Shown: positions 2,921 to 58,161, counted from the first letter of the stretch. The stretch is 64,000 nucleotides of DNA from Candidatus Nomurabacteria bacterium (GCA_020631995.1 JACKGJ010000001.1:161753-225752), one strand, 5' to 3'. The notes: generated by a model from the sequence alone, not told the origin. Numbers and translations: made by a program.

Positions 2921-3038
2921 GCTTCCAAAATCAGGTAAATTCTAGGGCTTCAGAAATTTTGCTCGTCACCGTATGTCTATATACGGCTCGCTCACAAAAT
3001 TTCCTCCAGTCCGTCGAATTTCCTCTAATTTTGAAAGC
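2921..3038 (-). repeat. Structured intergenic hairpin element R1 (subfamily II)
   Basis: Starts 2 nt after the rplT stop and ends before terminator 3045-3073. Positions 2965-2999 are the exact reverse complement of 11661-11695. Outer stem is 2921-2931/3028-3038. Confidence 0.75.
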
Positions 3039-3044
3039 TTTAGC

Positions 3045-3073
3045 AAAACCCCGCGCCACTGGCGCGGGGTTTT
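3045..3073. terminator. Bidirectional intrinsic terminator (rplT / MBL gene)
   Basis: AAAACCCCGCGCC act GGCGCGGGGTTTT. Confidence 0.8.
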
Positions 3074-3108
3074 GTTATTTGTTATTACTATTACTATAGG
3101 ACTGATAC

Positions 3109-4473
3109 TTAAAACTCAATCTCTACCACCTCCTCAGGACCTGGGGCCACAGCATTTACTCCTAAGTAGTCACGGAGACGCTGGACCAAGAAGAGTGATG
3201 AGCGCTCCTCGCCCATCGCCACAAAGACTTGTTTGGCCTTGTCTCCCCCCTTTGCAACAAAGCTTACTAATTGGTCGCGATCAGCGTGGCCAGACCAACC
3301 TTGAATGCTAGCTACTTCTGCTTTCACCACCACTTTTTTCCCATCAATCTTAAGAGAAGGTGCACCGTCTTTTAGTCGTCGCCCAATACTACCGACCGAC
3401 TGGTAACCTACCAGCAACAGAATAGTATTGGGATTAGAGAGAAAATTCTGCTCGTGTTTTAAAATACGCCCACCGTGTGACATTCCACTACCAGCAATTA
3501 TCACCTTAGCTCCCTTGGTGCGATTAATCGCTTCAGAATCAGAAACACTACGGGTTAGTTTGAGTTTAGGAAAATCAAAAATATTGTCCCCTTTCTTAAT
3601 TTGTTCACGCACCGAATCTCTTAAGTACTTAGTCCGTTCTCTATAAATATCAGTCACCTCGATAGCTAATGGTGAATCCAAAAATACTGGTATTGGTTCT
3701 ATCTTGCCACTTTCCACCATATTATTAATTTCAAATAGCATTCCTTGGGTGCGCTCAAGTGAAAAAGCTGGAATAATAAGTGTACCTTTTTGTTTGATGG
3801 TCTTTTCCAGATACCCTTGGAGTAACTCACTTCTTTCCTCCACCTCTTCGTGCTGTCGGTCTCCATACACACTCTCAATCACTAAGTAGTCGTAGTCTTT
3901 GGGAATCACCGGCGGATTAAGCAGTGGTTGCGGGTCGTTTCCGATATCACCTGAAAAAGTGATGCGTCGACCGGCACGCTCTAGAGTAATTGAGGCCGAA
4001 CCAAGAATATGACCCACATCTGTAAATACGGCGGAAACACCATCCTTAAGTGCAAGAGTGGCTTCGTATTCAACCGGTTTCCATAGCCCAAGGGCTGCAG
4101 CAATATCCTCCTCTTTATAAAGTAGCGGAGTACCATACTTTTCTGACTCAAAAGACATCACCTTGAAAGCATCACGCAACATCACCCCAGCCAGCGCGAG
4201 CGTTGGCTCTGTGGAATAAATAGTTCCTTTAAAACCTTCCCGAACAAGCTTTGGAATGCGACCAATATGATCAGCGTGTGCATGGGTAACTAAAAGAAAA
4301 TCCACTACGGCAGGGTCATAAGAAAATGGATTATGATTTTCCTTTTCCTCAAAGCGATCTCCTTGAACCAATCCGCAATCAACTAAGATTCGAGAATCTC
4401 CCGTATCAAGGTGAAAATTTGCTCCAGTAACACTCCCTACCCCTCCATAAAAACCAAGTTTAGATTTACTCAT
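3109..4473 (-). CDS. MBL-fold beta-CASP family metallo-hydrolase (RNA-metabolising ribonuclease-like)
   Basis: HAHADH metal motif and 454 aa with beta-CASP-like architecture (GSGM...GHAD near the C-terminus). Confidence 0.75.
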   Translation of the reverse strand: MSKSKLGFYGGVGSVTGANFHLDTGDSRILVDCGLVQGDRFEEKENHNPFSYDPAVVDFLLVTHAHADHIGRIPKLVREGFKGTIYSTEPTLALAGVMLRDAFKVMSFESEKYGTPLLYKEEDIAAALGLWKPVEYEATLALKDGVSAVFTDVGHILGSASITLERAGRRITFSGDIGNDPQPLLNPPVIPKDYDYLVIESVYGDRQHEEVEERSELLQGYLEKTIKQKGTLIIPAFSLERTQGMLFEINNMVESGKIEPIPVFLDSPLAIEVTDIYRERTKYLRDSVREQIKKGDNIFDFPKLKLTRSVSDSEAINRTKGAKVIIAGSGMSHGGRILKHEQNFLSNPNTILLLVGYQSVGSIGRRLKDGAPSLKIDGKKVVVKAEVASIQGWSGHADRDQLVSFVAKGGDKAKQVFVAMGEERSSLFLVQRLRDYLGVNAVAPGPEEVVEIEF

Positions 4474-4856
4474 ACGTCTAACTGACTTACTCTTCTACCA
4501 ACAAAGTACCCGGCCATTCCGCCAAGTGCTCCCATAATAAGATCTAATATTGTGTCACCTACATAGTTACCTTCTTCGAAAGGTATGCCGATAGATACCT
4601 CAAAAACTTCCCATACAGATGCAACCAGTAATACAAAAGCGACCGTGCGAACTAATGTGAAGTACCGGTCCACTAACTTTGGGAAAAATCCCAAGAATGT
4701 CAGGAAGCCCAGCGCCACAGTTACCCCGCCTAAAAAATGCACCGGAATATCAAGCCAAAGATAGAGCCAGTAAAGGTGGAGTTCTAAAAATAAATAATGA
4801 AAAACCGCCAACATAATGGCTGATAGTCCAAAGAGTAAGGTGGTTGATTTAATCAC
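4470..4856 (-). CDS. Small polytopic membrane protein (about 4 TM, unknown family)
   Basis: 128-aa hydrophobic ORF with a GTG start. It overlaps the downstream MBL gene by 4 nt. Start is uncertain. Confidence 0.5.
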   Translation of the reverse strand: MIKSTTLLFGLSAIMLAVFHYLFLELHLYWLYLWLDIPVHFLGGVTVALGFLTFLGFFPKLVDRYFTLVRTVAFVLLVASVWEVFEVSIGIPFEEGNYVGDTILDLIMGALGGMAGYFVGRRVSQLDV

Positions 4857-4873
4857 TTGTATATTTTAACACT

Positions 4874-4901
4874 AAAAAACACGTTCTTGAGAACGTGTTT
4901 T
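4874..4901. terminator. Bidirectional hairpin terminator
   Basis: AAAACACGTTC ttga GAACGTGTTTT with A/T runs on both sides. Confidence 0.65.
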
Positions 4902-5078
4902 CGGGTGAGTCGCCAACGTATGTCCCTGGAAAAGTCCAGGTGGGCACCCTATCCGGCTCCCGCTGAAATTGGTCAGACTAGCTTTCCATTCTCATTGTTT
5001 GTCGTGAGTTCAGGCAGCCCTGACAAAAAAATTAACTCGGAACATACGGAAGCGACTCAATTTAAGAATATCATATAC
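4902..5078. ncRNA. Orphan structured RNA candidate (riboswitch-like leader or sRNA), class unknown
   Basis: No credible ORF. An 8-bp closing helix TGAGTCGC (4905-4912) / GCGACTCA (5051-5058) encloses several local hairpins. It is bracketed by terminators at 4874-4901 and 5079-5112. Confidence 0.3.
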
Positions 5079-5112
5079 AAAAAATGACAATACTTAAGTA
5101 TTGTCATTTTTT
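5079..5112. terminator. Bidirectional terminator after ndk
   Basis: AAAAATGACAATACTT/AAGTATTGTCATTTTT perfect palindrome. Confidence 0.75.
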
Positions 5113-5124
5113 GTATCTTAATTC

Positions 5125-7905: not shown

Positions 7906-8145
7906 ATGAAGACAAAAATCCAAAAATGGGGCAATAGCCTGGGAGTACGTTTGCCTAAAAGTATCACAGAACAAAAGGCTCTCCGAGCCGGACTTGGTGT
8001 TTCAATTGTGATTAAGGACAATCAAATCGTTATCGAGCCAAGAGAGGAGGAGTTATCACTGGAGTCTATGTTATCGACCGTATCAGCAGACAATATTCAC
8101 AAGGAAACTGACTGGTCCAAGGCTCAAGGAAATGAAGTATGGTGA
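7906..8145 (+). CDS. mazE: AbrB/MazE-family antitoxin
   Basis: MKTKIQKWGNSLGVRLPKSI SpoVT/AbrB swapped-hairpin motif; overlaps the toxin gene by 7 nt. Confidence 0.85.
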   Translation: MKTKIQKWGNSLGVRLPKSITEQKALRAGLGVSIVIKDNQIVIEPREEELSLESMLSTVSADNIHKETDWSKAQGNEVW

Positions 8146-8483
8146 ATAAAGTCTATATTCCAGACAGAGGAGACTTGGTGTGGGTTGACTTCAACCCTAC
8201 TCGAGGTAAGGAGCAGGCAAAAGTACGACCTGCTATTGTATTGTCCCCCAAAGCCTATAATCAAAAGATTAGCCTAGCCATCATGTGCCCTATTACCTCG
8301 GTTCAAAAGAACTACCCTTTTGAGGTGGTAGTGAGTGATAAAAAAGTGTCAGGAGTAATTTTGTCAGACCACGCTAGGTCACTTGACTGGAAGGCGCGAA
8401 ATACAAAATTTATTGCCAAAGCAAAACCAAGCGTAATCGCAGAAGTCCAAACAAAACTCGGACTTCTTGTTTGTGGTAAGTAG
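8139..8483 (+). CDS. mazF: MazF/PemK-family endoribonuclease toxin
   Basis: PDRGDLVWVDFNPTRGKEQAKVRPAIVLSP, the typical PemK N-terminus. Confidence 0.85.
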   Translation: MVNKVYIPDRGDLVWVDFNPTRGKEQAKVRPAIVLSPKAYNQKISLAIMCPITSVQKNYPFEVVVSDKKVSGVILSDHARSLDWKARNTKFIAKAKPSVIAEVQTKLGLLVCGK

Positions 8484-8529: not shown

Positions 8530-8543
8530 TTTTAAATTAGTGA

Positions 8544-8699
8544 AATTGGATGCAGTTTCCTACTTAGATTCTGGGTGAGGATTTTTGGATGCAGTTTCGT
8601 CAGCTGGAAGGAGCTTTGCGACGGAGACGTAGGCGAACTACGGCGACCAAGCAAAGCGGCTGAAGCTGGCGGAAATGCGCCAAAAAGACCAGCCAGAAT
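8544..8699 (+). repeat. Structured intergenic hairpin element R2 (subfamily I) with an extra 5' half-copy
   Basis: GGATGCAGTT at 8587 pairs with AAATGCGCC at 8673. Outer stem is ATTCTGG 8568 / CCAGAAT 8693, abutting the secY stop. A second GGATGCAGTT lies at 8548. Confidence 0.75.
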
Positions 8700-9970
8700 T
8701 AGTATTCGCGCATTGAGACTTGAGCATCAACACGGCGCAAAAGATCCAACACCACCGACACCACAATAAGTAGTGCTGTACCACCAATAGCGAGAGCTGC
8801 AATACCTGTCACCATCTGCATACCAAGAGGTAGGACGGCTACTAGACCAAGGAATAACGCTCCCACTAGGGTGAGGCGAGTAATAAGTCCACCTAGGTAC
8901 TCGGCCGTTGCGCTACCAGGACGAAGCCCTGGTACGAATGCACCACTGCGTTGCAGGTTCTTCGATACAGCATCAGGATCAAAGGTCACAGCTGTGTAGA
9001 AGAAGGCAAAGAGGATAACTAGTACGAAATAGACGGCTGCGTAAGCAATTTGGTTATTAAAGAAAACCAAAAGCATTTCAGAAGCCCGAGCTACTCCAGC
9101 AATGTTGAAGCTAGACAGGACGTTCAGGAGCATCTGAGGGAAAAGTAGCATCGACATAGCGAAGATAATCGGTATAACACCTGCCTGATTAAGGCGAAGT
9201 GGTAAGTATGAAGAGGTTCCTCCGTAAGTCTGTCCCCCACGGCTTTGCTTAGCATAGGTGATTGGTACTGGGCGCTCCGCTTCTGTCATTACCACCACGG
9301 CATAGATAGTAGCTAAAGCGATGAGACCAAAGCCAAGATAAAGTGGCAACTGCGCTGGAGTATAACCAAACGCGAGCTGACTTACAGTAGCTGGCAGTCC
9401 GGCTACGATACCAGCGAAGATGATAATTGACACGCCGTTACCAATACCATACTCAGTAACTAGTTCACCGATCCACATAAGTAGAATGGAACCAGCCACA
9501 ATTAAGATTACGTTGGTCATAAAAGCAAAAGTGGACAATCCACTAATTACACCCTGACTCTGAAGTAGAGTAAGGAATCCATAACCTTGTAAAACACCAA
9601 GAGGTAGCGTAAGGAGACGAGAATACTGGGTAAAGCGAGCTCGTCCCGCTTCCCCCTCTTCAGTGTGCATACTCTTAAGTTTTGGTGACATCACTGTCAT
9701 CAACTGCATAATAATTGACGCAGTAATGAACGGCCCAACACCAAGCATTATGATAGACAGGTTAGCCAGTCCACCACCAGAGAAGATGTTTAGAAGTCCC
9801 AAGAATTGATTATTCTCGAAAAATTGCTGCAATACTACCGCATCGACTCCAGGAATAGGAATGGTCGATAGGGCTCTGAAGATGAATAGCGCCCCGAATA
9901 CAAACAGTAGACGATTTCGAATACTCTCATCGGTCAGCGCTATTTTCAGTTTATGTAGGAATTTATTCAT
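8699..9970 (-). CDS. secY: Preprotein translocase subunit SecY
   Basis: 423-aa polytopic protein with SecY motifs (GGGLANLSIIMLGVGPFITASI). Confidence 0.95.
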   Translation of the reverse strand: MNKFLHKLKIALTDESIRNRLLFVFGALFIFRALSTIPIPGVDAVVLQQFFENNQFLGLLNIFSGGGLANLSIIMLGVGPFITASIIMQLMTVMSPKLKSMHTEEGEAGRARFTQYSRLLTLPLGVLQGYGFLTLLQSQGVISGLSTFAFMTNVILIVAGSILLMWIGELVTEYGIGNGVSIIIFAGIVAGLPATVSQLAFGYTPAQLPLYLGFGLIALATIYAVVVMTEAERPVPITYAKQSRGGQTYGGTSSYLPLRLNQAGVIPIIFAMSMLLFPQMLLNVLSSFNIAGVARASEMLLVFFNNQIAYAAVYFVLVILFAFFYTAVTFDPDAVSKNLQRSGAFVPGLRPGSATAEYLGGLITRLTLVGALFLGLVAVLPLGMQMVTGIAALAIGGTALLIVVSVVLDLLRRVDAQVSMREY

Positions 9971-11605: not shown

Positions 11606-11626
11606 ACACCTTGTGATTTAAACTTA

Positions 11627-11734
11627 GGAAATTGGATGAAATCCGACGGGCTGGAGAAAGTTTTGTGAGCGAGCCGTATATAGACATACGGTGACAAGCA
11701 AAACTTTTGAAGCCCTAGGATTTCGCCGATTTCA
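11627..11734 (+). repeat. Structured intergenic hairpin element R3 (subfamily II) between rplF and rplR
   Basis: GGATGAAATCC...GGATTTCGCC middle stem. The 35-nt core 11661-11695 is identical (reverse complement) to 2965-2999. Confidence 0.75.
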
Positions 11735-11740
11735 TATTGT

Positions 11741-12274
11741 TTAAACAGCTTTCTTACCTTGCTTACGAATAATATATTCACCCTGATAGCGAATACCCTT
11801 GCCCTTGTAAGGCTCTGGCTTCTTCACCTTGCGTACGTCAGCCGCAAATTGGCCAATGGCTTCCTTGTCGACTCCCGTTACTGTCACGACACCCTTTTCT
11901 ACCACTACGTTAACTCCCTCAGGAATCTCTTTTTCTACCGGATGAGAGAATCCCATAAGAAGTACAAGCTTGTTGCCTTTCACTTCAGCACGGTAACCGA
12001 CTCCTTCGATTTCTAAAACCTTTTTGAAACCTTCGGTAACTCCGGTCACCATATTGCGAGCGTGCGCAGCGTAAGTACCCCACAGGGCCTTAGCTACAAC
12101 ACTACCCTCTTTTGGAGAGAAGGTAATAACGTTCCCTTCCATCTTAAGTTCAACATCATCTTTAATCTCGCGAGACAAAGAAGTGTTTCCCTTTTTCACA
12201 GTCAAGATACCACCTTCGAAAGTAGCTTCGACGCCGGCTGGCAGTATTACTGGTTGTTTTCCTAATCTAGACAT
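11741..12274 (-). CDS. rplF: 50S ribosomal protein L6
   Basis: MSRLGKQPVILPAGVE..; ATG at 12274 preferred. Confidence 0.95.
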   Translation of the reverse strand: MSRLGKQPVILPAGVEATFEGGILTVKKGNTSLSREIKDDVELKMEGNVITFSPKEGSVVAKALWGTYAAHARNMVTGVTEGFKKVLEIEGVGYRAEVKGNKLVLLMGFSHPVEKEIPEGVNVVVEKGVVTVTGVDKEAIGQFAADVRKVKKPEPYKGKGIRYQGEYIIRKQGKKAV

Positions 12275-16714: not shown

Positions 16715-16758
16715 ATAGATAAAACGCTAAGGCTGGCCTGAAATAAGGAAGTTTGTTT

Positions 16759-16860
16759 AAAATCAATGAGATGCAAGGCGGATGAGGAAAATAATGCGAG
16801 GTGAACTTAACGTTCAGAGAGCTTTATTTTCCGACATCCAACGTAGCAGGTCGTGATTTA
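16759..16860 (+). repeat. Structured intergenic hairpin element R4 (subfamily III) in the rplB-rpsS spacer
   Basis: Core 16784-16832 is GAGGAAAATAATGCGAGGTGAAC..GTTCAGAGAG..TTATTTTCC. It resembles 29378-29429 and 28628-28661. Confidence 0.7.
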
Positions 16861-17037
16861 AACTGACTTCTAAGTCAGAAGCCCGTGTGGATGAAGGTAA
16901 CGGCCTACCCCACACGAGTTCCCGACAAGTAGTGATTTGAGCTGTGCCGACCCGCCCTGCCAGGGGCTTTCGGGCATCAGTTCGGAACGGGGGCTATAGT
17001 ACGGGATTCGGTAGAAAAAGTCAACTAAATACATAAC

Positions 17038-17073
17038 AAGAAAACCCGCAAGCTTTTGCCTGCGGGTTTTCTT
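17038..17073. terminator. Hairpin terminator directly after rplB, inside the S10 cluster
   Basis: AAAACCCGCAAGC tttt GCCTGCGGGTTTT with A/T flanks. Confidence 0.7.
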
Positions 17074-17095
17074 GTCTAGAACTCAAATCTTGAGT

Positions 17096-17956
17096 CTATT
17101 TTTTACTTGTCATTCGTGGGCCTAACTTGCGTCTCTTAACAATAAACTTGTTAGATTGCTTCTTCGGACGACGAGTTTTCTGACCCTTACCGGTCGGACG
17201 ACCCTGAGCCGTACGAGAGCGCTTGTGTCCACGTGGCTGTACACCTTCTCCACCTCCGTGTGGGTGGTCTACGGCGTTCTTAGCAGTACCACGAGTCTTA
17301 GGACGAAGTCCCATATGACGAGCGCGTCCTGCCTTACCAATGTTCACTAGACGATTCTCTTCGTTTGAAACTTCACCAATGGAAGCCCAAGCGGTAGAGA
17401 TGATCTTGCGAATTTCAGTTGAAGGTAGACGAACCTGTGTGTAACCAGCGTCCTGCGCCACTACTTCAGCGTAGTTACCAGCAGAACGAGCGATACGAGC
17501 ACCAGCTCCTGGCTTCAACTCCACTGCGTACACAAATGTACCAACTGGAATCTTAGCAAGAGGGAGGCGGTTACCTAGAGTTGGGCGAGCATCTTCTGAG
17601 ACAGTGAAACTATCCCCTACCTGCATACGCTGTGGCACTAGGACATAACGTCGTTCACCATCGGCATAAAGCGCTAGGGCAATGAAACCTGTTCGGTACG
17701 GATCGTACTCGATAGTTTCAATTCGAGCTGGAATATCCTTCTTGTTGAAACGAAAGTCAATTTCACGATACTTACGCTTGTTACCGTTACCACGATACCA
17801 AACGGTAGTGCGTCCCTGACTGTTACGACCACCGGTTGAACGGCGACCCTTTACCAAAGCCTTGTGCGGAGTACTGGAAGTCGAAGACAATTTCTTCTTG
17901 TATTCGATTACGGTCATCCCGCGACGACCTGGTGATGTTGGTTTGTGTTTTTTCAT
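17096..17956 (-). CDS. rplB: 50S ribosomal protein L2
   Basis: HPHGGGEG motif, 286 aa with a basic C-terminal tail. Confidence 0.95.
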   Translation of the reverse strand: MKKHKPTSPGRRGMTVIEYKKKLSSTSSTPHKALVKGRRSTGGRNSQGRTTVWYRGNGNKRKYREIDFRFNKKDIPARIETIEYDPYRTGFIALALYADGERRYVLVPQRMQVGDSFTVSEDARPTLGNRLPLAKIPVGTFVYAVELKPGAGARIARSAGNYAEVVAQDAGYTQVRLPSTEIRKIISTAWASIGEVSNEENRLVNIGKAGRARHMGLRPKTRGTAKNAVDHPHGGGEGVQPRGHKRSRTAQGRPTGKGQKTRRPKKQSNKFIVKRRKLGPRMTSKK

Positions 17957-21834: not shown

Positions 21835-21867
21835 ACAAAAACCCAGACCAAAGGTCCGGGCTTTTGT
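21835..21867 (-). terminator. Terminator of the tuf-rpsJ transcript
   Basis: Hairpin ACAAAAGCCCGGACC / GGTCTGGGTTTTTGT on the - strand (two G.U pairs) followed by a T-run. Confidence 0.7.
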
Positions 21868-21895
21868 TGCAACTGGCAACACTAAACTTTTCTGT

Positions 21896-22020
21896 AAATC
21901 TTAAGAAATGGGATGCAGTTGTATTGGTTGGAGGAATTTTGACGACGGAGCCTTAGTTGACCTAAGGTGACCGAGACAAAATTCCGAAACCAGTGCAAAT
22001 GCGCCGATTTCTTAAGATTT
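21896..22020 (+). repeat. Structured intergenic hairpin element R5 (subfamily I), 3' of rpsJ
   Basis: A 14-bp perfect outer stem (21896-21909 / 22007-22020) overlaps the rpsJ stop codon. GGATGCAGTT is at 21911 and AAATGCGCC at 21997. The central hairpin is GGAGGAATTTTGACGACGGAGCCTTAG..CTAAGGTGACCGAGACAAAATTCC. Confidence 0.8.
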
Positions 22021-22390
22021 AGTTCATTTTGACGTCGATTGAGACTCCCGACGGCAATGACAAATTCGTCAATGCCTCCACCACCTTTGCACTCGGATTT
22101 AAGATGTCGAGCACACGCTTGTGCATTCGCATCTCAAATTGTTCTCGCGCATCTTTATCGATGAACGTCGAGCGGTTAACGGTGTACTTCTTGATTTCAG
22201 TCGGCAAAGGAATCGGACCTACTACCTGTGCGTCGAAACGCAAAGCAGTGTCAATTATTTGCTTGACTGAAGCATCAAGAATCTTGTTCTCGTAAGCACG
22301 CACACGAATGCGTAACTTCTGAGAATCAGGTGTAGCGACCTCCTTTTTCTTGGTGGTTCGCTTTACAGTCTTTTTTGTTGCAGTTGCCAT
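22019..22390 (-). CDS. rpsJ: 30S ribosomal protein S10 with a Lys-rich N-terminal extension
   Basis: LRIRVRAYENKILD..KDAREQFEMRMHKR; ATG at 22390. Confidence 0.95.
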   Translation of the reverse strand: MATATKKTVKRTTKKKEVATPDSQKLRIRVRAYENKILDASVKQIIDTALRFDAQVVGPIPLPTEIKKYTVNRSTFIDKDAREQFEMRMHKRVLDILNPSAKVVEALTNLSLPSGVSIDVKMN

Positions 22391-22465
22391 ATATTTGTTT
22401 TTCAATTTCAAACTTTCTCAAATTGGATATCGAGCCAAGAAAGCTCAGTGCCAACTTGGTAAGCT

Positions 22466-23650
22466 TTAAGCTACGATTTTTGTTACTACTCCCGCTCCTA
22501 CAGTCTTACCTCCTTCACGAATAGCAAATGACTGCTTTTCTTCAAGTGCCACAGGAGCCACTAGCTTAACCTTGAAGGTTGCTGTGTCACCTGGCATAAC
22601 CATCTCTACTCCGTCAGCCAAAGTAACCTCACCAGTTACGTCGGTAGTACGAACGTAGAATTGTGGCTTGTATCCGGTGAAGAATGGAGTGTGACGTCCA
22701 CCCTCGTCCTTAGAAAGTACGTATACTTCAGCTTCGAAGTCAGTGTGAGGAGAAACTGAACCTGGAGCAGCTAGTACCTGACCACGGTGTACATCCTCCT
22801 TCTTAGTACCGCGGATAAGGATACCAGCGTTGTCTCCAGCCTGAGCGGCGTCAAGAGATTTGTTGAACATTTCAACACCAGTAACAGTGGTCTTGGTAGT
22901 ATCTTTGATACCAACAATTTCGATTTCACCACCTACCTTGATAGCACCACGTTCTACACGACCAGTTACCACTGTACCGCGACCTTCAATAGAGAAGATG
23001 TCTTCAACCGGCATAAGGAACGGCTTGTCGAGTTCACGCTCTGGCATTGGGAAGTAAGTGTCCATAGTGTCAACGAGCTCAAGAACCTTCTGCCCGTATT
23101 CACCAGCAGGATCCTCAAGAGCCTTAAGACCAGAACCCTTGATAACAGGAGCATCGTTGTAGCCTTGAGCTGCAAGTAGTTCCTTGAGTTCTTCCTCAAC
23201 CAACATCAACATCTCTTCGTCTTGAACCATATCGCACTTGTTAAGGAAGACGATGATGTTAGGCACACCAACCTGCTTAGCAAGAAGAACGTGCTCACGT
23301 GTTTGAGGCATCGCACCGTCGGTCGCTGCAACCACTAGGATTGCACCGTCCATCTGGGCAGCACCAGTAATCATGTTCTTGATGTAGTCGGCGTGACCCG
23401 GAGCGTCGATGTGTGCGTAGTGACGATTAGGGGTCCAATATTCACTGTGGGAAAGTGAAATAGTAATACCACGCGCCTTTTCTTCAGGCGCCTTGTCAAT
23501 ATCTTCAACGGCCTTTACGTTTGCGCCGTATTCCCCACCCTTTCCATTGAGTACGTTTAGAATAGCAGCAGTGAGCGTAGTCTTACCGTGGTCAACGTGA
23601 CCAATGGTACCAACGTTCATGTGCGGCTTAGTACGATCGAAATCTGCCAT
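22466..23650 (-). CDS. tuf: Elongation factor Tu
   Basis: [25 protein letters not shown]. The upstream 49 codons of the ORF are treated as non-coding. Confidence 0.97.
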
Positions 23651-25378: not shown

Positions 25379-25422
25379 AGAAATACAAAGAGCCGGCCCT
25401 AGGGCCGGCTCTTTGTATTTCT
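25379..25422. terminator. Very long perfect hairpin terminator after fusA
   Basis: 21-bp stem AGAAATACAAAGAGCCGGCCC ta GGGCCGGCTCTTTGTATTTCT, overlapping the fusA stop by 1 nt. Confidence 0.8.
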
Positions 25423-28582: not shown

Positions 28583-28707
28583 GAAAACTGCAAAATTTAG
28601 ATGAATCACGAGGCGAACAAGAAAAAAGACCCGAGGTGAACTTGATTGTTCATCGAGGGTCTTTTTTCGCAGTTCAACAAAGTGAGTCGCTAAATTCTGC
28701 AGTTTTC
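28583..28707 (+). repeat. Structured intergenic hairpin element R6 (subfamily III) whose centre doubles as a terminator, 3' of rpsG
   Basis: An 18-bp outer stem (28583-28600 / 28690-28707, one mismatch) abuts the rpsG stop. The centre is AAAAAAGACCCGAGGTGAAC ttgatt GTTCATCGAGGGTCTTTTTT. Confidence 0.75.
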
Positions 28708-29177
28708 TACCAAGCGAAGTGTGCGAACGCTCGGTTAGCCTCCGCCATCTTATGTACATCATCCTTCTTCTTCACGGCAGCACCTTCGTTCTTAGCGGCC
28801 AAGAGAATCTCAGCTGCGAGTGCCTTGAACATTGGTACGCCCTTGGCGCCACGAGCAGAACCAATCATCCAACGTAGAGCTAGAGAGGTACGACGTTCAG
28901 GACGTACTTCTCGAGGAACTTGGTAGTTTGCACCACCAACACGACGAGAACGTACTTCCATCAGTGGACCAGCGTTTTGAAGTGCAGTCTTGTATACCTC
29001 AACTGGGTCACCTCCCTCCTTGTCATTCTTAATGAGCTCAAAAGCAGCGTAAACCACCTTGCGAGCAGTTTCCTTCTGCCCACGTAGCATCACGTAGTTT
29101 ATAAGTTTTTCCACCATCTCATCGCCAAACTTAACGTCAGGCTGGAGAGTTGGTCTTTTTTTAATTGGTCTTCGCAT
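28707..29177 (-). CDS. rpsG: 30S ribosomal protein S7
   Basis: MRRPIKKRPTLQPDVKFGD.. Confidence 0.95.
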   Translation of the reverse strand: MRRPIKKRPTLQPDVKFGDEMVEKLINYVMLRGQKETARKVVYAAFELIKNDKEGGDPVEVYKTALQNAGPLMEVRSRRVGGANYQVPREVRPERRTSLALRWMIGSARGAKGVPMFKALAAEILLAAKNEGAAVKKKDDVHKMAEANRAFAHFAW

Positions 29178-29238
29178 AATGTTCTTTCGTTATCTAAAGC
29201 GAGATACTTAATAATTTTAAAAGGCGGAAACTGTCTAC

Positions 29239-29339
29239 AGTTGTCACCTTTAGAGGAGAATTCACGAGTGAGACGTAGTCAACCTACGACGACTAGTGGA
29301 TTCTCCAAAAAGGAGGCAAATTGTGCTTTTCTCACAACT
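29239..29339 (+). repeat. Structured hairpin element R7a in the rpsL-rpsG spacer
   Basis: GGAGAATTCAC (29255) / GTGGATTCTCC (29296) form an 11-bp stem around GAGTGAGACGTAG tcaac CTACGACGACTAG. Outer pair is AGTTGT/ACAACT. Confidence 0.65.
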
Positions 29340-29352
29340 TTCAAGAAGTAAG

Positions 29353-29457
29353 AAATTGGATGGAGAGCGAGACGTGCGAGGAAAATAATACGAGGTGAAC
29401 TTCAATTGTTCAGTGAGTATTATTTTACCGAAGCACAACGACGCCATCCGCCAATTT
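29353..29457 (+). repeat. Structured hairpin element R7b (subfamily III), abutting the rpsL stop
   Basis: AAATTGG/CCAATTT outer stem and GGATGG/CCATCC pair. Core 29378-29429 is GAGGAAAATAATACGAGGTGAAC..GTTCAGTGAG..ATTATTTTACC. Confidence 0.75.
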
Positions 29458-29458
29458 A

Positions 29459-29869
29459 TTATTTCTTGGGTGCTTTGGTTCCGTAACGTGAGCGCGACTG
29501 CATACGCTTGTCTACTCCGGTCGCATCGTACTTACCACGTACCACGGTGTAGTTAACACCAATGTCTTTCACACGACCACCACGGACCAATACTACGGAG
29601 TGCTCCTGGAGAGTGTGCCCGATACCTGGGATGTAGGCAGTGATTTCTTGTCCGTTGGTAAGACGTACACGAGCAATCTTACGAATAGCAGAGTTTGGCT
29701 TACGAGGAGTCTTAGTAGTGACACGAGTACAAACTCCACGCTTAAACGGTGAGTTGTATTCGTTAGGACGATTCTTGATCTTATCGAAACCAGACGACAA
29801 AGCAGCCACTTTGGTTTTGTGAGCTGGGTCGCGACGTCGCTTCTTAATTAGTTGTTTTATTGTTGCCAT
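29459..29869 (-). CDS. rpsL: 30S ribosomal protein S12
   Basis: [29 protein letters not shown]. Confidence 0.97.
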
Positions 29870-30760: not shown

Positions 30761-30868
30761 ATGGTCATATGTTAACTCATAAATGAGGCTCCACAAAGCC
30801 GAAGTCCAGAGAGAGTACCTGTCCAACGATTGCAAAATCAATACCCTGTGGTAATATGGCGCCCACGT

Positions 30869-31111
30869 ATGGCAAAAGTATGTCAAATCACTGGTAAGTC
30901 CACCCAAGTTGGTGGCCGCTACTCAAACCGCACTCGTGCGACGCAGTTTAACCCTTGCGGCAAAGTTCGTCGTGCTCCAAACATTCAGAAGAAGCGTATC
31001 TTCGTTCCTGAAATTGATAGCTTCGTAACTATCAACGTTTCTACCAAAGGACTCCGAACTATGAATAAGAATGGTGCATATAAGACTCTCAAGGAAGCAA
31101 AACTTATCTAA
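30869..31111 (+). CDS. rpmB: 50S ribosomal protein L28
   Basis: MAKVCQITGKSTQVGGRYSNRTRATQ. Confidence 0.9.
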   Translation: MAKVCQITGKSTQVGGRYSNRTRATQFNPCGKVRRAPNIQKKRIFVPEIDSFVTINVSTKGLRTMNKNGAYKTLKEAKLI

Positions 31112-31233
31112 ATCCCTGAAATCGGCGCATTTGTACTTGCTTCAATCGAAGCTCTCCCGCGCCGTATAATCAAATACGTCTTGGTCAAGATTCTCCTTCC
31201 AGCAAGCACAACTGCATCCAATTACAGAAATTT
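31110..31233 (-). repeat. Structured intergenic hairpin element R8 (subfamily I, inverted), 3' of rpmB
   Basis: The + strand shows GGCGCATTT (31124) ... AACTGCATCC (31210), the reverse complement of the R5 ends. The outer stem 31110-31118 / 31225-31233 overlaps the rpmB stop. Confidence 0.8.
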
Positions 31234-31254
31234 AAAGTTTAGTTAAACAATCTA

Positions 31255-34257: not shown

Positions 34258-34260
34258 ACT

Positions 34261-34683
34261 CTACTTTTTGGCTTTCTCGTCCAAAGCTTCATTCACCAAG
34301 CGGTCTGCCTCTTTGTTTTCTTCCCGCCTTACGTGGGAAAGTGAGAGTTTGGAAAAATGCGCTCGTAGGTCCTGTATCTCTAAAAAGATACTTCTAAGAC
34401 CTGGATTTTTAACCTTATACTCTCCAGCCAACTGCTTAACTACTAGTTCACTATCAAGCTTCCAATCAATTTCTAAATCTGTAGTCTCTTTACCGAAACG
34501 AGCTTTAAGGACCTGAAGTCCCCGCAAAACAGCAGTGTATTCCGCTATGTTATTAGTGCTTTCTCCAATATATTCTGCAACTTCTTCAAGAATTTCGTTC
34601 TTTTCAGTCTCAATAACGACACCAATGGCCGCTGGTCCAGGGTTGCCTCTGGCTCCCCCGTCGGAATGTACAATCAGTTTCAT
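34261..34683 (-). CDS. rnhA: Ribonuclease HI
   Basis: HSDGGARGNPGPAAIG..NNIAEYTAV..DSELVVKQ..NKEADRL catalytic DEDD pattern. Confidence 0.85.
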   Translation of the reverse strand: MKLIVHSDGGARGNPGPAAIGVVIETEKNEILEEVAEYIGESTNNIAEYTAVLRGLQVLKARFGKETTDLEIDWKLDSELVVKQLAGEYKVKNPGLRSIFLEIQDLRAHFSKLSLSHVRREENKEADRLVNEALDEKAKK

Positions 34684-34690
34684 AATTTAC

Positions 34691-34987
34691 TTATGATAAC
34701 ACTTTGAGGGCGTCTTCTCGAAACGCTTCAGTCTCCTCTTCCAAAATCACTTTAAACATCGGAAACGCATCTGAAAGAATTAAATGCAAATCATCTTTGT
34801 CTGCATAGGCCTCGAGCATATGAGCAAAGTGTTCACCTGTTGATTCATCACTTTCTGTAATAAATCTCAACACTGAACTTTCTAAAATCAAACCACCAAG
34901 ATCCGCCAAAAATACCATCTTCTCGTCTTCAGACATTTCCGAGAAGTGAAACAGGTCCGCTATGTTTTTTTGGATTTCTGTTGTCAT
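34691..34987 (-). CDS. Small acidic hypothetical protein
   Basis: 98-aa ORF, tightly spaced within the operon, no recognisable motif. Confidence 0.45.
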   Translation of the reverse strand: MTTEIQKNIADLFHFSEMSEDEKMVFLADLGGLILESSVLRFITESDESTGEHFAHMLEAYADKDDLHLILSDAFPMFKVILEEETEAFREDALKVLS

Positions 34988-34999
34988 AGATATTTTTTA

Positions 35000-37618: not shown

Positions 37619-37654
37619 ATGGTAATTAACATAATACCATCCAGCCTCGTCTCG

Positions 37655-44490: not shown

Positions 44491-44596
44491 AGGAAAATTG
44501 TATCACGCTTTACTGGCAAAATTCCCAAACGACAAAGCTAGGTGCTCATTTTGGAGTTTTGTGCCTCCTTTTTCCTCCTAGCACTGGTTCGCTTTG

Positions 44597-44742
44597 CTCA
44601 CAACGCGTTTCCTGACTCAGGTCAGGACCGGAGGGAACAAGAAACTATTCTTGTTCTGCCCACCTAACGCTTGCTCGTTTCACTCACAACGCGTTTCCTG
44701 ACTCAGGTCAGGACCGGAGGGAACAAGAAACTATTCTTGTTC
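44597..44742. repeat. Tandem duplication (two 60-bp near-identical units, 86-bp period) carrying nested palindromes
   Basis: Positions 44597-44656 and 44683-44742 are identical. Each holds AACGCGTT, CCTGAC tcag GTCAGG and a GAACAAGAA acta TTCTTGTTC hairpin. Confidence 0.85.
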
Positions 44743-46218
44743 CCTCCACTCGATGAACTGATAATTATCAGAAGTCTTTGGGGTCAAAGGTGGTGGGTCG
44801 ATAGCTAGGTCACGGTCATAGTAGTCGTAGCGATACTCAAAGCCATTGCAGTACACACCTCCGGAGCATACCCATTTAGTACCAACGCGACCATTCGAGA
44901 CCACTGTTCCATTAGTGGTCAGTGAATTGCGGTACATATAGTCACTCATCGAATTTTGAATGCGCACGTAATCAGGATTAGAATCAGCAGAGTTACTATT
45001 ACTAACATAGTAGTATGGCCGATGGAACTTTCCTTTCTGCGCCAAAAAAATACCGTTTATCGACATATTATCTGGTACATCTAGACCAATATTGATGTTT
45101 TCTTCGGCGATTAGTAGGAGGCCTGAGTCTTCATTAGCATAAGTGAGGTTACCAACAATAACTACTCTTGGATCTGTCGTGGAGTCAGGTGCGGCAGCGG
45201 CAACTGTCACTCGTCCATTTATCACGCCCTCCACCCACACATTGTCCTCAAAGAAAATAACACTACAAGAAGAAGGTATAGAGTACGTCCCCACTGTCGT
45301 TGCACTGTTCAAAAAGTTTTTACTGTGACCCCAAGCATTACCTTTGGCCTTACTCGACTTTGCCTTTTTTAGTGTATATGTACCATTTGAGTTAAATACA
45401 ACATAATAACCAGCCTCACCGGAAGGTCCATAGTATTGACCACCTGAATTGGTAGCACGATCTTTTATGTCAGAAAGGTCTACCGTTACTCCTGTGAAAC
45501 TAACTGGTGGTACAGACCATTGCCACAAATCAGAACCATCCCCGTCACCAAACACTCCATTGACACTGGTCCAATTACTAGCAAATTGTGGACTTGCAGT
45601 ACAAATATCAAGGTAGTAGCACCATGAGCTCGTTTGTCCGCTAGTCACTTTAGAGTTATTGAGTCCATCCATACGCACAAAGCCATTGGAATGATATGGT
45701 CCATAGATAATACGATCAGGACCGGCCCAGACATTGGCATTAACGATGTGTGAGAACTCTGCTACGTTGGGCCTAGCATAACGAGCATAGACTATTCTTT
45801 CTATATTTGGTTCTTTGGTTGTATAACCTGTCGAAGTAATATCAATAGAAGTCACCGCTCCACACGCTAGGTTGCCATCCACCTCCAAAGAATACTCCCC
45901 AATTACATCGCCCTCTGGGTCACTAAACGGAACTACATAAGGGCCAGCTTCTCCAGTACCGTTTTGGATATCATCAGGATGGTGAGCTAGAAACCATTTG
46001 TAGTAGTTAAGCCCAGCCTCTGCAATTTGAAGGGCTTGCTCACTATTTAATTTGGCATTAGATATTTTCGAGCCAGTAATAGTAAAACCCATAAAGGCTG
46101 TAAAAATAGTGAAGAACACGGCCCCAAACACTAAGAGTAATACCACTAAGTAGCCCCTAGAAAGATTATGGTTCGCTACTTCGTTGTGTTGATCTGAACT
46201 TTTAAATTTAAATGTCAT
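44731..46218 (-). CDS. PilX-like / pilus-associated protein with an N-terminal hydrophobic anchor (495 aa)
   Basis: N-terminus ..SRGYLVVLLLVFGAVFF is pilin-like but lacks Glu5. Sits in the operon with the prepilin-like genes. Confidence 0.55.
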   Translation of the reverse strand: MTFKFKSSDQHNEVANHNLSRGYLVVLLLVFGAVFFTIFTAFMGFTITGSKISNAKLNSEQALQIAEAGLNYYKWFLAHHPDDIQNGTGEAGPYVVPFSDPEGDVIGEYSLEVDGNLACGAVTSIDITSTGYTTKEPNIERIVYARYARPNVAEFSHIVNANVWAGPDRIIYGPYHSNGFVRMDGLNNSKVTSGQTSSWCYYLDICTASPQFASNWTSVNGVFGDGDGSDLWQWSVPPVSFTGVTVDLSDIKDRATNSGGQYYGPSGEAGYYVVFNSNGTYTLKKAKSSKAKGNAWGHSKNFLNSATTVGTYSIPSSCSVIFFEDNVWVEGVINGRVTVAAAAPDSTTDPRVVIVGNLTYANEDSGLLLIAEENINIGLDVPDNMSINGIFLAQKGKFHRPYYYVSNSNSADSNPDYVRIQNSMSDYMYRNSLTTNGTVVSNGRVGTKWVCSGGVYCNGFEYRYDYYDRDLAIDPPPLTPKTSDNYQFIEWREQE

Positions 46219-48576: not shown

Positions 48577-48673
48577 TCTATATATAGTACAACGTCGGCG
48601 TCGTTATTTTGGCTACACTCACTTGATAAAGATTAGAGTCATACACTTTTCTTTCACTTCCAACTTCAATTTT

Positions 48674-48861
48674 CTAAAACTTTTAAAAGTGGATGCACCA
48701 CACGGGCACTTCCGTTTTCATAGTCGAGCAAGCTCTCCTTGAAAACTAGGTCGCAGTTGTGCTGGTTGGAGGAATTTTGGCGACAGAGCCTTAGAACAAA
48801 CTAAGGTGACCAAGACAAAATTATGAAACCAGTGCAAATGCGCCACTTTTAAAAGTTTTAG
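48674..48861 (+). repeat. Composite structured hairpin element R9 (subfamily I with an internal insertion), 3' of pilC
   Basis: A 17-bp perfect outer stem (48674-48690 / 48845-48861) overlaps the pilC stop. GGATGCA is at 48691, GGTCGCAGTT at 48749 and AAATGCGCC at 48836. The core closely matches R5 by eye. Confidence 0.8.
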
Positions 48862-54366: not shown

Positions 54367-54415
54367 ACACAACGAAAAAGCTAGGAGTCTTCGACTCCTA
54401 GCTTTTTCGTTGTGT
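54367..54415. terminator. 23-bp perfect hairpin terminator after ppa
   Basis: ACACAACGAAAAAGCTAGGAGTC ttc GACTCCTAGCTTTTTCGTTGTGT. Confidence 0.8.
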
Positions 54416-55735: not shown

Positions 55736-55790
55736 TGACAAAGGATTAATCTTAAAAACACCTGTGACTATGAGTTGCCGGTGTTTTTGC

Positions 55791-56087
55791 TTACATCATC
55801 TAGTACAAACCCTTGAAGAAGCCCGTCTGACATGCTTTAATGCGCCCTTGCTTGTCCCGTTTAAATCCTATAGAGATCACGGCTAATCGACCAACGTTGG
55901 TCACCGCGGACAAATAACTTGGCTTTACTGGAATGTCGAATTCGGCCACGAGCATCCGCTCGGGGCTGAATGCGACATATATAACAAGGGTCGGCGGAGG
56001 CCGACTCCTTATCCAGAAAAAGACGCCTGGTTCATTCGTCTAATGCCCTGTGGCGTAAGCCAAGGCATTTGACGAATGACGTTTTTA
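55791..56087 (+). promoter_or_regulatory. Roughly 300-nt structured non-coding region ending in a terminator-like hairpin just upstream of tig
   Basis: No ORF. It contains several strong hairpins and a terminal hairpin 56032-56079 plus TTTTT, 20 nt before the tig ATG. ACTTGGCTTTAC (55917) is complementary to the terminator loop GTAAGCCAAGG (56055). Confidence 0.4.
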
Positions 56088-56106
56088 TTTAATAATTTTA
56101 TACTAT

Positions 56107-57237
56107 ATGGACTTCAAAAAAGACTTTGGCGTAGAGAAGGTAGAGGGCTCACAAGTCAAAATAACTGGTGAAATACCTTACGAAGAGGTAGCAAAGCACC
56201 GTGCCAAGACCATAAAGGCATTGGGTAAGAATATGAAAGTAGATGGCTTCCGTGAAGGGCATGTGCCTGAGGCTATTGTAGTGCAAAAAATCGGTGAGAT
56301 GGCCCTTCTAACCGAGATGGCTGAATCAGCTCTCGCAGCTACTTATCCTGAGATATTAAAGGCACACAAAATTGACGCCATTGGTCACCCTAAAATTGAA
56401 ATAACTAAGATTGCTCTAGAAAACCCACTTGGCTTCACTGCTCACGTAGCGGTTTTACCAGAAATTAAATTGGCTGACTACAAGAAAATCGCTAAAACTC
56501 TAAACAAGGAGAAGGAAGATGTCCTTGTAACTGACGAAGACGTAGAGAAGCAAGTAAACGATATCCTTCGTCAAAAAGCTGCCTACGAGCGCCTACAAAA
56601 GAAGGCACAATCTGGCGAAAAGGAATCCCATACCCATGCTGACGGCACAGTCCATGAAGGTCCTGCACACGACGATTCTGGCAAACCACTTGAGGATATA
56701 AATGACCTAGAGATTCCAGAGCTCACAGATGAGGTAGTTAAAACCTTGGGGGCACCTGGCCAGTTTGAAACAGTAGATGATTTTAAGACCAAGCTACGCG
56801 AACACTTGGAAATCGAAAAGAAACGCGAAGCTGAAGCAAAGCATCGAGCAGCGGTGACGGACAAAATAATCGAAGAAAGTCAATTTGAAATACCTCAGGT
56901 ATTAGTTGACTCTGAAATCGGGCAAATGTTTTCTCAAATGGAAGAAGATATTAAGCGGGCCAATCTGTCGATGGATGATTATCTAAATCATATGAAGAAA
57001 ACTCGTGAGGACTTAAAGAAAGAATGGGCACCGACTGCTGAAAAGCGTGCCCGACTTCAATTAGTCCTAAATGAAATAGCTAAGTCTGAAGAGATATTGC
57101 CAGACCCAGCCAAGGTAGAAGAAGAAGCAAAACACCTCCTAGAGCACTACAAAAATGCTGATGCTACTAGGGTAAAAATCTACGTGGCGTCTGTGATGCA
57201 GAACGACGAGGTGATGAAATTCTTGGAAAGCCAGTAA
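56107..57237 (+). CDS. tig: Trigger factor lacking the central PPIase domain
   Basis: N-terminal ribosome-binding signature GFREGHVP and C-terminal arm regions. It is only 376 aa, with a short His-rich linker where the FKBP domain normally sits. Confidence 0.85.
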   Translation: MDFKKDFGVEKVEGSQVKITGEIPYEEVAKHRAKTIKALGKNMKVDGFREGHVPEAIVVQKIGEMALLTEMAESALAATYPEILKAHKIDAIGHPKIEITKIALENPLGFTAHVAVLPEIKLADYKKIAKTLNKEKEDVLVTDEDVEKQVNDILRQKAAYERLQKKAQSGEKESHTHADGTVHEGPAHDDSGKPLEDINDLEIPELTDEVVKTLGAPGQFETVDDFKTKLREHLEIEKKREAEAKHRAAVTDKIIEESQFEIPQVLVDSEIGQMFSQMEEDIKRANLSMDDYLNHMKKTREDLKKEWAPTAEKRARLQLVLNEIAKSEEILPDPAKVEEEAKHLLEHYKNADATRVKIYVASVMQNDEVMKFLESQ

Positions 57238-57249
57238 CCAACCACCATA

Positions 57250-57280
57250 GAAACCGCAAGAATAAATCCTTGCGGTTTTT
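57250..57280 (+). terminator. Terminator after tig
   Basis: AAACCGCAAG aataaatc CTTGCGGTTTTT. Confidence 0.7.
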
Positions 57281-57420
57281 ATTATCGTGCAATGCTTGAT
57301 ATCAAGATAAGTGCATCTACTTAAACTTTCTGCTAGGATTGCAGAGTCAGAGCCTATCCACGATCTCATCGTAACCCAAAGTGGCTAGGCTCTTAGATAA
57401 TTTAAATTTGGAATTGAAAT

Positions 57421-58026
57421 ATGGAAATGAAAAATAACAGTGAAATAATGAGCCAATTGGTACCGATGGTGATTGAAAAGACCATTGGTGGTGAACGCGC
57501 CTACGACATCTACTCACGACTGCTTAAGGAGCGTATTATCTTCGTAACTGGTCATATTGAAGACCATATGTCTAACTTGGTGGTAGCACAGCTACTATTC
57601 CTAGAGGCTGAAGACCCAAAGAAAGACATATATATGTACATCAACTCCCCAGGAGGAAGCGTAACTTCAACCTTGGCAATGATTGATACTATGAATCACA
57701 TCAAGCCAGATGTGGCGACTGTCTGTGTTGGTATGGCCGCTTCCGGCGGAGCTCTCCTCCTCTCTCAAGGAGCTAAAGGAAAGCGCTTTGCGCTTCCTAA
57801 TGCTGAGGTGATGATTCATCAGCCACTGGGAGGTGCGCAGGGTCAGGCTTCCGACATTGAAATTACAGCCCGTCATATCATCGCCACTCGTGATCGTCTA
57901 AACAAAATGTTGTCGAAAGCCACCGGTAAGCCGATCGCACAGATTGAAAAGGATGTGGACCGAGACTTCTTTATGTTGGCAGAGGATGCTAAGAAATATG
58001 GCATCATCGACCAGGTCTACAAATAA
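57421..58026 (+). CDS. clpP: ATP-dependent Clp protease proteolytic subunit
   Basis: [29 protein letters not shown], active-site GMAASGG and HQP. Start could be 57421, 57427 or 57448. Confidence 0.93.
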
Positions 58027-58028
58027 TT

Positions 58029-58161
58029 TTATAAACTTGTGACGATGATGAGACGGAGCGTTGTGAGGCACGACTAATGTCCTGTCGTGACGAACCGCGA
58101 GTCCGGACAGGAAGTGCTTATGAATGAAATGAATTAGCAACTTGACGTTCATCGACCAAGT
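58029..58161. repeat. Structured hairpin element R10 between the clpP stop and its terminator (same architecture, divergent core)
   Basis: 12-bp perfect outer stem TTTATAAACTTG / CAAGTTTATAAA, second stem GACGATGA/TCATCGAC, inner hairpin TCCTGTC..GACAGGA. Confidence 0.6.

Follow-up and report, generated by a model that had tools for sequence, protein, structure and literature searches.

A hairpin repeat family anchored at the stop codons of genes in Paceibacteria

The DNA analyzed here is a 64,000-nucleotide (nt) stretch from Candidatus Nomurabacteria bacterium (GCA_020631995.1 JACKGJ010000001.1:161753-225752), referred to below as the window. Its G+C content is 42-47%, and it contains a ribosomal-protein cluster that lacks L30, as well as secY, tuf, fusA, nusA, pilB/pilC and comEC; the minus strand carries most of the genes. 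In the spacers between these genes lie ten copies of an imperfect palindrome of 100-130 nt (up to 190 nt at composite sites) that holds no open reading frame (ORF), and this hairpin repeat is the subject of the present study. The closest species representatives are Patescibacteria of the Paceibacteria group, with UBA6201 at the top (locus L003, L6 92% identical). Identical matches to the SecY protein of the window were obtained on metagenome contigs only. The main relatives used for comparison were the loci L003 and L097, which show about 88% nucleotide identity to the window in shared genes and 68.5% at four-fold sites. Since the proteins and the related loci belong to Patescibacteria/Paceibacteria, the cyanobacterial repeats SDR, Nezha and HIP1 were dropped as candidates for the element.

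A preliminary description of the window had listed ten intergenic sites as long imperfect hairpins. All ten were found to fold into long, unbranched structures, with z-scores of -4.4 to -13.2 for the better-folding strand and -2.5 to -11.1 for its complement when compared with 200 dinucleotide shuffles. They form one family, as had been proposed: BLAST and MAFFT gave a shared consensus, which reads AAATTGGATGcAGTTG..TGGAGGAA..GAG.GAG-apical stem-GGTGAC..CAAATGCGCCGATTT, and a covariance model matched every site. This model, built from 41 copies and run with filters off at a cut-off of E<1e-3, matches exactly these ten sites and nothing else in the 64 kb. Identity between copies at different sites reaches 87-92%; within the window it is 89% between 2921 and 11627 and 87% between 21896 and 48745. 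Two subtypes can be recognized, A (2921, 8582, 11629, 21906, 29228, 31121 and 48744) and B (16759, 28594 and 29353). Together the ten sites total about 1.25-1.4 kb, or about 2% of the window, in agreement with the earlier estimate of about 1.3 kb. An eleventh hairpin, at 58029-58161, had been considered related. The model does not detect it on either strand, and the likeness extends to the general design only: the hairpin (58027-58163) begins directly after the clpP stop codon and is moderately stable (z about -3.4 on both strands), with its purine-rich strand being the mRNA strand.

The preliminary description had not recognized the element as a described RNA or repeat family, and Rfam contains no match to it. 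Rfam release 15, applied to the whole window at the gathering threshold, returned tRNA only. Scans by E-value, made with six of the ten copies and with the stretch 16850-17100 beside a seventh, gave only generic hairpin or terminator matches far below the threshold. No description of such repeats was found in the literature on Patescibacteria, Parcubacteria or the candidate phyla radiation (CPR), and we regard the family as an apparently undescribed hairpin repeat of 100-130 nt. Several other identities were considered and rejected. The geometry of the loops does not fit a k-turn, for the readings as a retron msd or an attC site, neither a reverse transcriptase nor an integrase lies adjacent, and the short GTG/TTG ORFs are not conserved.

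The covariance-model scan of relatives proposed with the preliminary description recovered 59 and then, with a successive model, 84 copies in 80 related ribosomal-protein loci. A strict DNA pattern led to 31 metagenome loci, in which 47 model matches represented 39 distinct copies. In 760 kb of unrelated viral loci the model had no match, so that it can be considered specific. Because copies occur in the 80 related loci and on metagenome contigs, the family is spread across the bacterial class Paceibacteria (CPR/Patescibacteria). The family extends beyond the ribosomal-protein and pilus operons named in the preliminary description, and elsewhere also follows ribonucleotide reductase, gyrA and tuf genes; the upstream genes in the metagenome set include ribonucleotide reductase, gyrA, tuf, rplB, rplF, rpsJ, rplW and pilC. 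No evidence of carriage by phages was obtained: a loose pattern gave about 120 chance matches on viral contigs, none of them matching the model, and the strict pattern gave two weak matches (25 bits), of which the one examined (L235) lies inside a phage ORF.

The common plan described earlier, with an outer stem, an A/T-rich middle stem, purine-rich internal loops and a short apical hairpin, is present on one of the two strands. On this purine-rich strand the conserved ends are AAATTGGATG...GCGCCAATTT, which form a basal stem AAATTGG/CCAATTT. The outer stems had been said to differ completely between copies and yet to pair. Their copy-specific pairing is real: for the 12 nt beyond the model on each side, pairing with the own partner has a mean of -6.6 kcal/mol as opposed to -1.7 kcal/mol with permuted partners, a value reached by none of 100 permutations. 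These flanks were scored by duplex energies, as an ungapped count of pairs had given a weak signal through register shifts. The difference in sequence is not complete, since AAATTGG/CCAATTT and several internal words are conserved, and words in the loops are shared across subtypes and species. Some copies outside the window carry extra apical branches common to several species. GTAG/CTAC was seen only within the apical stem of some subtypes, with no unpaired tag at an end.

The two strands of the element are not equivalent. Unpaired columns of the model are 66% purine, purine-purine mismatches outnumber pyrimidine-pyrimidine ones (132 vs 34 cells), and on the purine-rich strand there are 127 G.U cells vs 54 A.C. 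A U.G (G.T) pair is conserved in 49 of the 84 copies from related loci and in 34 of the 39 from metagenomes. This strand folds 3-22 kcal/mol better than its complement. Covariation was assessed in alignments fitted to the model, in which a palindromic DNA repeat would yield the same signal as a selected RNA. Among the related loci, 91.4% of cells were paired vs 68.4% in shuffles, with 219 vs 61 double-change cells and 29-48% in slid controls; the independent metagenome set gave 94.3% vs 73.2%, with compensatory changes at 24 of 25 pairs. Across both sets, double changes affect 22-24 of the 25 pairs. Compensatory changes were also found between orthologous copies, for example in the pairs L057/L059 and L011/L049. 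When RNAalifold was applied to a MAFFT alignment of the hairpins at the secY site in mRNA sense, only the two inner helices were recovered.

The copies hold a constant relation to stop codons. When ORF ends were searched from -15 to +40 nt around the edge of the model, a long ORF on the opposite strand was found to end there in 63 of the 84 copies, 51 of these at a distance of 7-14 nt with a mode of 8-10 nt, and the same was true of 33 of the 39 metagenome copies. About 80% of the copies thus abut the stop codon of an opposite-strand gene, which makes the strand that is purine-rich and folds better the antisense of the mRNA. In the sense arrangement the ORFs are short, and their distances have no peak. 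Read as mRNA, the hairpin starts at the stop codon or a few nucleotides off, and about 63-73% of copies have the stop codon base-paired (TAA..TTA, TAG..CTA, TGA..TCA). The minimum free energy (MFE) profile of the family climbs stepwise at this codon, from 0.49 to 0.63, 0.73 and 0.83, a transition that is not razor-sharp. At the secY site, a hairpin of about 125 nt begins 0-6 nt from the stop codon in about 40 of 71 loci, and the similarity of these hairpins barely tracks that of the SecY proteins (rho 0.17). What follows a copy is either the Shine-Dalgarno sequence and start codon of the next gene or a separate GC-rich intrinsic terminator; many copies are intra-operonic and lie 20-40 nt ahead of the next start codon.

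All ten copies of the window obey this orientation rule, including those after the plus-strand genes for L20 and L28. Their upstream neighbors are rplT, secY, rplF, rpsJ, rpsG, rpsL (a tandem pair), rpmB and pilC, and in one case a conserved non-coding stretch. The copy at 31110 was only an apparent exception, because the plus-strand L28 gene that precedes it had been overlooked. Copies after plus-strand genes are flipped, and on single contigs opposite orientations less than 1 kb apart track the direction of the genes. It follows that orientation is tied to transcription and not to the replication strand. For stems in general, an exact 8-bp count gave a broad enrichment after stop codons without a sharp peak, which indicates that anchoring at the stop is a property of this hairpin family; an 8-mer with one mismatch was too loose for this question and MFE domains were too noisy. 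A different imperfect hairpin of 82 nt, absent from the window, lies directly after the rplW (L23) stop codon at L003 3803-3886, so the stop codons of these genomes are a landing place for hairpins of more than one family.

On the plus strand, the copy after rplT (L20) occupies 2917..3040. Its hairpin starts at the stop codon (2917-2919), its purine-rich, better-folding strand is the minus strand, and it has a score of 87 bits and z-scores of -8.7 / -6.8; the orthologue L003:18798-18922 is 92% identical. A separate intrinsic terminator lies downstream at 3046-3076. Look-alike terminators of the form AAAACCCG..loop..CGGGTTTTGTT are found at 701-731, 3046-3076, 21838-21868 and 59824-59854, and show what a genuine terminator looks like in this DNA. 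The secY copy (8568..8701, minus strand; stop 8699-8701; purine-rich strand plus; 86 bits) is 87% identical to the copy after rpsJ in L097. Beside it, at 8543..8558 on the plus strand, is a solo 5'-arm fragment (AAATTGGATGCAGTTT) of an older copy, with a similar fragment at L003:13814-13829. The sites 8544-8699 and 48674-48861 are both composites, each with a full copy and a fragment or branch. A contig in ENA with the same secY (L001) is assembled as a head-to-head palindrome and is likely a chimera that arose at a hairpin. Next to the secY site of the window, at 7937-8483, a mazE/pemK toxin-antitoxin pair without a megablast match in L003 is located between duplicated adenylate kinase genes and secY.

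In the rplF(L6)-rplR(L18) spacer, the copy at 11617..11743 (minus strand, 96 bits) starts at the L6 stop codon (11741-11743), has GTTTAAA on both flanks and is followed by the Shine-Dalgarno sequence and ATG of L18; its orthologue L003:10544-10669 is 88% identical. The subtype B copy at 16750..16872 (minus strand; 27 bits, E 8e-4), with the apex CGAGGTGAAC..GTTCA..GAG, matches L003:5416-5537 at 96.7% identity. Downstream of it is rpsS, and on its upstream side is a GC-rich stretch of conserved non-coding sequence. This stretch, at 16870-17034 on the minus strand, separates the element from the rplB terminator (about 17035-17075), includes TTGACT-17 nt-TACTAT, which resembles a promoter, and shares 95% identity with L003:5262-5416, as against 68.5% at four-fold sites. 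Its 54-codon ORF is broken by indels in L003, it has no Rfam match, and its fold has a z-score of just -0.7. The stretch may correspond to a small RNA that lacks annotation or to a regulatory region.

The rpsJ (S10) copy, at 21895..22021 on the minus strand (stop 22019-22021), has a perfect outer stem of 14 bp, 103 bits and a z-score of -13.2; the terminator at 21838-21868 follows it, and L097 holds a different subtype at this site. In the tuf-rpsJ spacer a stub (22412..22468, minus strand, 54 nt) has kept both ends, with a core of about 100 nt replaced by about 35 nt. It forms a mini-hairpin from the tuf stop codon (z -3.1), and the orthologous site in L097 carries a full copy. The subtype B copy after rpsG (S7), at 28583..28709 on the minus strand (stop 28707-28709), is convergent with a plus-strand kinase gene and has 28 bits, E 6.5e-4 and z-scores of -10.0 / -11.1. 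The tandem pair, also on the minus strand, consists of a first copy of subtype B after rpsL (S12), at 29347..29461, which starts at the stop codon 29459-29461 (40 bits), and a second in the rpsL-rpsG spacer, at 29228..29340 (65 bits). The rpmB (L28) copy occupies 31109..31236 (83 bits). Its gene is on the plus strand (ORF 30830-31111; Pfam Ribosomal_L28, 2e-14) and its purine-rich strand is the minus strand. The composite copy after pilC (48669..48861, minus strand, 84 bits) includes the stop codon 48858-48860 within an 18-bp outer stem; its core spans 48744-48847, and positions 48692-48743 form an additional branch that contains a GGATGCA fragment.

Other features of the window were also recorded. 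There are four perfect palindromes with arms of 21-29 nt and loops of 0-4 nt (5075-5116, 25379-25422, 54367-54415 and 61088-61149), probably bidirectional terminators; the fusA stop codon is directly next to one of them, and another overlaps a tRNA gene (61142-61212) at its 3' end. Between tpiA and the next gene, at 44574-44745, two tandem units of 86 nt are 87% identical, each with the short palindromes CCTGACTCAGGTCAGG and GAACAAGAAACTATTCTTGTTC. The cluster at 32746-40387 encodes ComEC, an RNase H / RVT_3-like protein, an 872-aa protein without a family match and a TraD/VirD4-like coupling ATPase; it adjoins recJ and pilus genes and may be a module for DNA uptake or transfer.

Comparison with the relatives revealed that copies are gained, exchanged and lost by decay between close relatives. 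Those present in L003 or L097 and missing from the window lie after rpmI (L35), between rplC and rplD (L3-L4), 5' of rplC, after rplB (L2) and after tuf. The rplC-rplD spacer is at most 17 nt long in 13 of 15 relatives, and in L003 the old spacer is preceded by TAA[126 nt]TAA, an insertion with a TAA/TA direct repeat. The rplF-rplR spacer measures 3-27 nt in 49 of 63 loci, and a patchy subset is occupied. At the rpsJ and secY sites, close relatives hold different subtypes; the rpsJ copy of L097 is 87% identical to the secY copy of the window, and its tuf copy is 92% identical to the rplT copy of the window. Decay products in the window are the stub at the tuf site and solo arm fragments. In the L6-L18 spacer of L065 (10405 region), a mini-hairpin TAAGGTTCAAAATAgcagTATTTTGAATT, probably another apex-deleted stub, was found where L062, L023, L026 and L015 have a full-length element.

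The copies also show signs of constraint. Orthologous copies of the window and L003 are 88, 92 and 97% identical, vs 68.5% at 1,463 four-fold sites. As the copies are conserved above silent codon positions, the repeat probably matters to the mRNAs that carry it. The preliminary description had argued for selection on structure rather than the copy-paste spread of a mobile element. Selection on structure is supported, as the stems covary strongly, the copy-specific outer stems pair and orthologues outdo four-fold sites. The contrast with a mobile element was not supported, given the sequence homology between copies, their conserved ends, presence and absence between relatives, the exchange of subtypes and the stub.

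The reading we favor, with a confidence somewhat better than even, is that the elements are constrained, non-autonomous mobile palindromic repeats of the kind known as miniature inverted-repeat transposable elements (MITEs) or repetitive extragenic palindromes (REPs), a new family in Paceibacteria that is co-transcribed at the 3' ends of genes. The copies stand at gene 3' ends in a fixed orientation to the upstream gene, and their structure and sequence are conserved above the synonymous rate. A putative transposase would insert the element at TA/TAA, often that of a stop codon. The copy would then be co-transcribed with the upstream gene and fold into a hairpin, which would loop out the insert, so that the stop codon and the ribosome-binding site or terminator downstream stay neighbors, and which may in addition shield the upstream message at its 3' end. 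Copies at other places or reversed would be purged, the reversed ones because three or four GGAGG/GAGG loops resembling Shine-Dalgarno sequences, together with a much stronger helix, would be exposed in the mRNA. Selection by the host at the RNA level could then preserve the hairpin with its loops. Placement at stop codons would be explained most simply by the operon spacers of 15-23 nt, where insertion at the stop spares the next ribosome-binding site.

Several observations weigh against this explanation. The better-folding strand, with its G.U pairs, conserved U.G and purine-purine mismatches, is antisense to the mRNA, which an account at the RNA level does not predict. A search of the window and L003-L113 (about 1.6 Mb) with arms 0.2-6 kb apart found neither a transposase nor a long element bounded by such arms, which is a weak negative. 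Target duplication is clean at one junction only; TA/TAA flanks are common and not universal, and, as TA is self-complementary, they are indistinguishable from an extension of the stem. The difference between genomes at site 1 could equally be a deletion between AAAAC repeats. Both the transcription of the copies and the purging of sense copies are steps that we infer. Finally, a host function accounts better than a purely selfish element for conservation well above the synonymous rate, for the conserved loops and for the secY hairpin, which is present in about 40 of 71 loci.

The strongest alternative, which we hold to be possible and clearly less probable, is that the repeat is mainly a cis-acting RNA element of the host. 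It would be an mRNA hairpin anchored at the stop codon, with pyrimidine-rich, anti-Shine-Dalgarno-like loops (CCUCC, CACCUCG), acting in mRNA processing or 3'-end protection (e.g., through RNase III or as a barrier to 3' exonucleases) or tuning termination and re-initiation, and spread by occasional duplication with mobility being secondary. Such a role would be consistent with the 88-97% identity of orthologues vs 68.5% at four-fold sites, the loop words kept across subtypes and species, the compensatory changes between orthologues (L057/L059, L011/L049), the hairpin of about 125 nt located 0-6 nt from the secY stop codon in about 40 of 71 loci, the strictly gene-tied orientation and the tuf-site stub that still folds from the stop codon. 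However, the mRNA has the weaker-folding strand, and occupancy is patchy: the L6-L18 spacer is empty (15-23 nt) in most relatives, and close relatives differ, with occupants swapped. In addition, the similarity of the secY hairpins is almost independent of that of SecY (rho 0.17), and copies often precede an ordinary terminator, which makes a 3' barrier redundant.

The strand asymmetry could instead reflect a DNA strand. According to this explanation, which we consider unlikely, the element is REP-like and its purine-rich strand, with G.T and G.A pairs, is as single-stranded DNA the substrate of an HUH/Y1 enzyme (REP-associated tyrosine transposase, RAYT, or IS200/IS605 type) or a similar one. 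Tandem mismatches of the 5'-YGAR type are stable in DNA, the asymmetry sits on the non-mRNA strand, and the U.G (G.T) pair is conserved in 49/84 and 34/39 copies. REPs are likewise found near the 3' ends of ORFs and are bound as single-stranded DNA by RAYTs (PMC3733652). Yet the present elements measure 100-130 nt and not 20-40, they lack a GTAG or CGTC end tag, their orientation tracks transcription and not the replication strand, and no Y1 transposase was seen in the 10-20-kb loci, a genome-wide protein search not having been run.

We judge it highly improbable that each copy is a small RNA gene of its own, read from the purine-rich strand and antisense to the operons. Folding is best on this strand, and its G.U and G.A features are RNA-like, but conserved flanking promoters or terminators are absent, the flanks being the outer stem and the neighboring genes; moreover, ten paralogues would each lie precisely at a stop codon, and their presence varies between close relatives. 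Least probable of all are intrinsic terminators or attenuators, which the location after genes might suggest, since the long, A/T-rich stems are interrupted and lack a T-run, no U-tract follows a GC-rich stem, genuine terminators look different and often directly follow the element, and many copies are found within operons with the next start codon 20-40 nt away, and chance similarity in A/T-rich, low-complexity DNA, a caveat of the preliminary description that the z-scores, the specificity of the model and the covariation exclude.

Among known repeats, a REP is defined as a palindrome of 20-40 bp with a GTAG or CGTC tag at one end, and REPs are mostly located downstream of ORFs, often no more than 20 bp from the 3' end (PMC3733652). 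In subfamilies of REPs and MITEs, changes in the stems compensate each other and G.T pairs occur, and an action as RNA hairpins has been proposed; MITEs, among which Nezha is listed, are palindromes of intergenic regions that are variably present, with a role as RNA hairpins (PMC3733652). The present family resembles the REP/BIME and RAYT systems in its 3'-end location, compensating subfamilies, G.T pairs and proposed RNA role, and differs in being 3-5 times longer and multi-helical, with conserved internal loops and no GTAG/CGTC tag. It shares the features of bacterial MITEs, namely inverted-repeat ends (AAATTGG.../...CCAATTT), a small size within the 70-300 bp of that class, lack of coding capacity, many copies and variable presence.

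The ERIC/IRU repeats of enterobacteria and Yersinia are imperfect palindromes of about 120 nt that are transcribed in intergenic regions and whose RNA hairpins can affect mRNA fate. They are comparable in size, lack of coding capacity, position next to coding sequences and variable presence between relatives; they belong to another phylum and have no sequence similarity to the present family, in which orientation is nearly fixed, the base lies at the stop codon, outer stems are copy-specific and orthologous copies diverge less than synonymous sites. In Neisseria the Correia/NEMIS elements, and in pneumococcus RUP, are 100-150 nt long, with inverted-repeat ends and duplication of TA on insertion. 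Size and ends are similar here, TA/TAA flanks are common and there is one TAA[insert]TAA junction, but the outermost sequences vary, no IS630-like partner was found, and orientation bias and stop anchoring are much stronger. Mycobacterial MIRUs are intercistronic, in one orientation, and their ends overlap stop and start codons so that coupling is preserved; they share the intra-operonic position and single orientation, but are translated tandem direct repeats and not hairpins. Cyanobacteria have hairpin repeats as well, SDR and the Nezha MITEs, with copies that can be nested or composite; they are unrelated in sequence and host lineage, and we know of no stop-codon rule for them. Integron attC sites offer an analogy only: they are imperfect hairpins at gene 3' ends that keep structure over sequence and show strand asymmetry, whereas here there is no integrase and no cassette array, and the flanks are core ribosomal genes in conserved order.

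The genomes of CPR/Patescibacteria, of about 1 Mb, are commonly regarded as streamlined, with few repeats and regulators. About 2% of the core-gene region analyzed here is a single, class-wide hairpin family with strict rules of stop-codon position and orientation. These repeats will affect the assembly of metagenome-assembled genomes, the calling of gene 3' ends and searches for non-coding RNA in CPR genomes, and the covariance model can serve as a marker for the clade. The family is either a clear natural example of a mobile palindrome tolerated in the most constrained operons of a minimal genome, or an unrecognized post-transcriptional element. It is conceivable, though we give this only a minor share of our confidence, that the repeat is a domesticated RNA device specific to Paceibacteria, anchored at stop codons and under purifying selection in essential operons, which sets termination and re-initiation or the cutting and protection of mRNA. 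If this is true, it would constitute a general layer of post-transcriptional control in regulator-poor organisms, spread by the mechanism of a mobile element.

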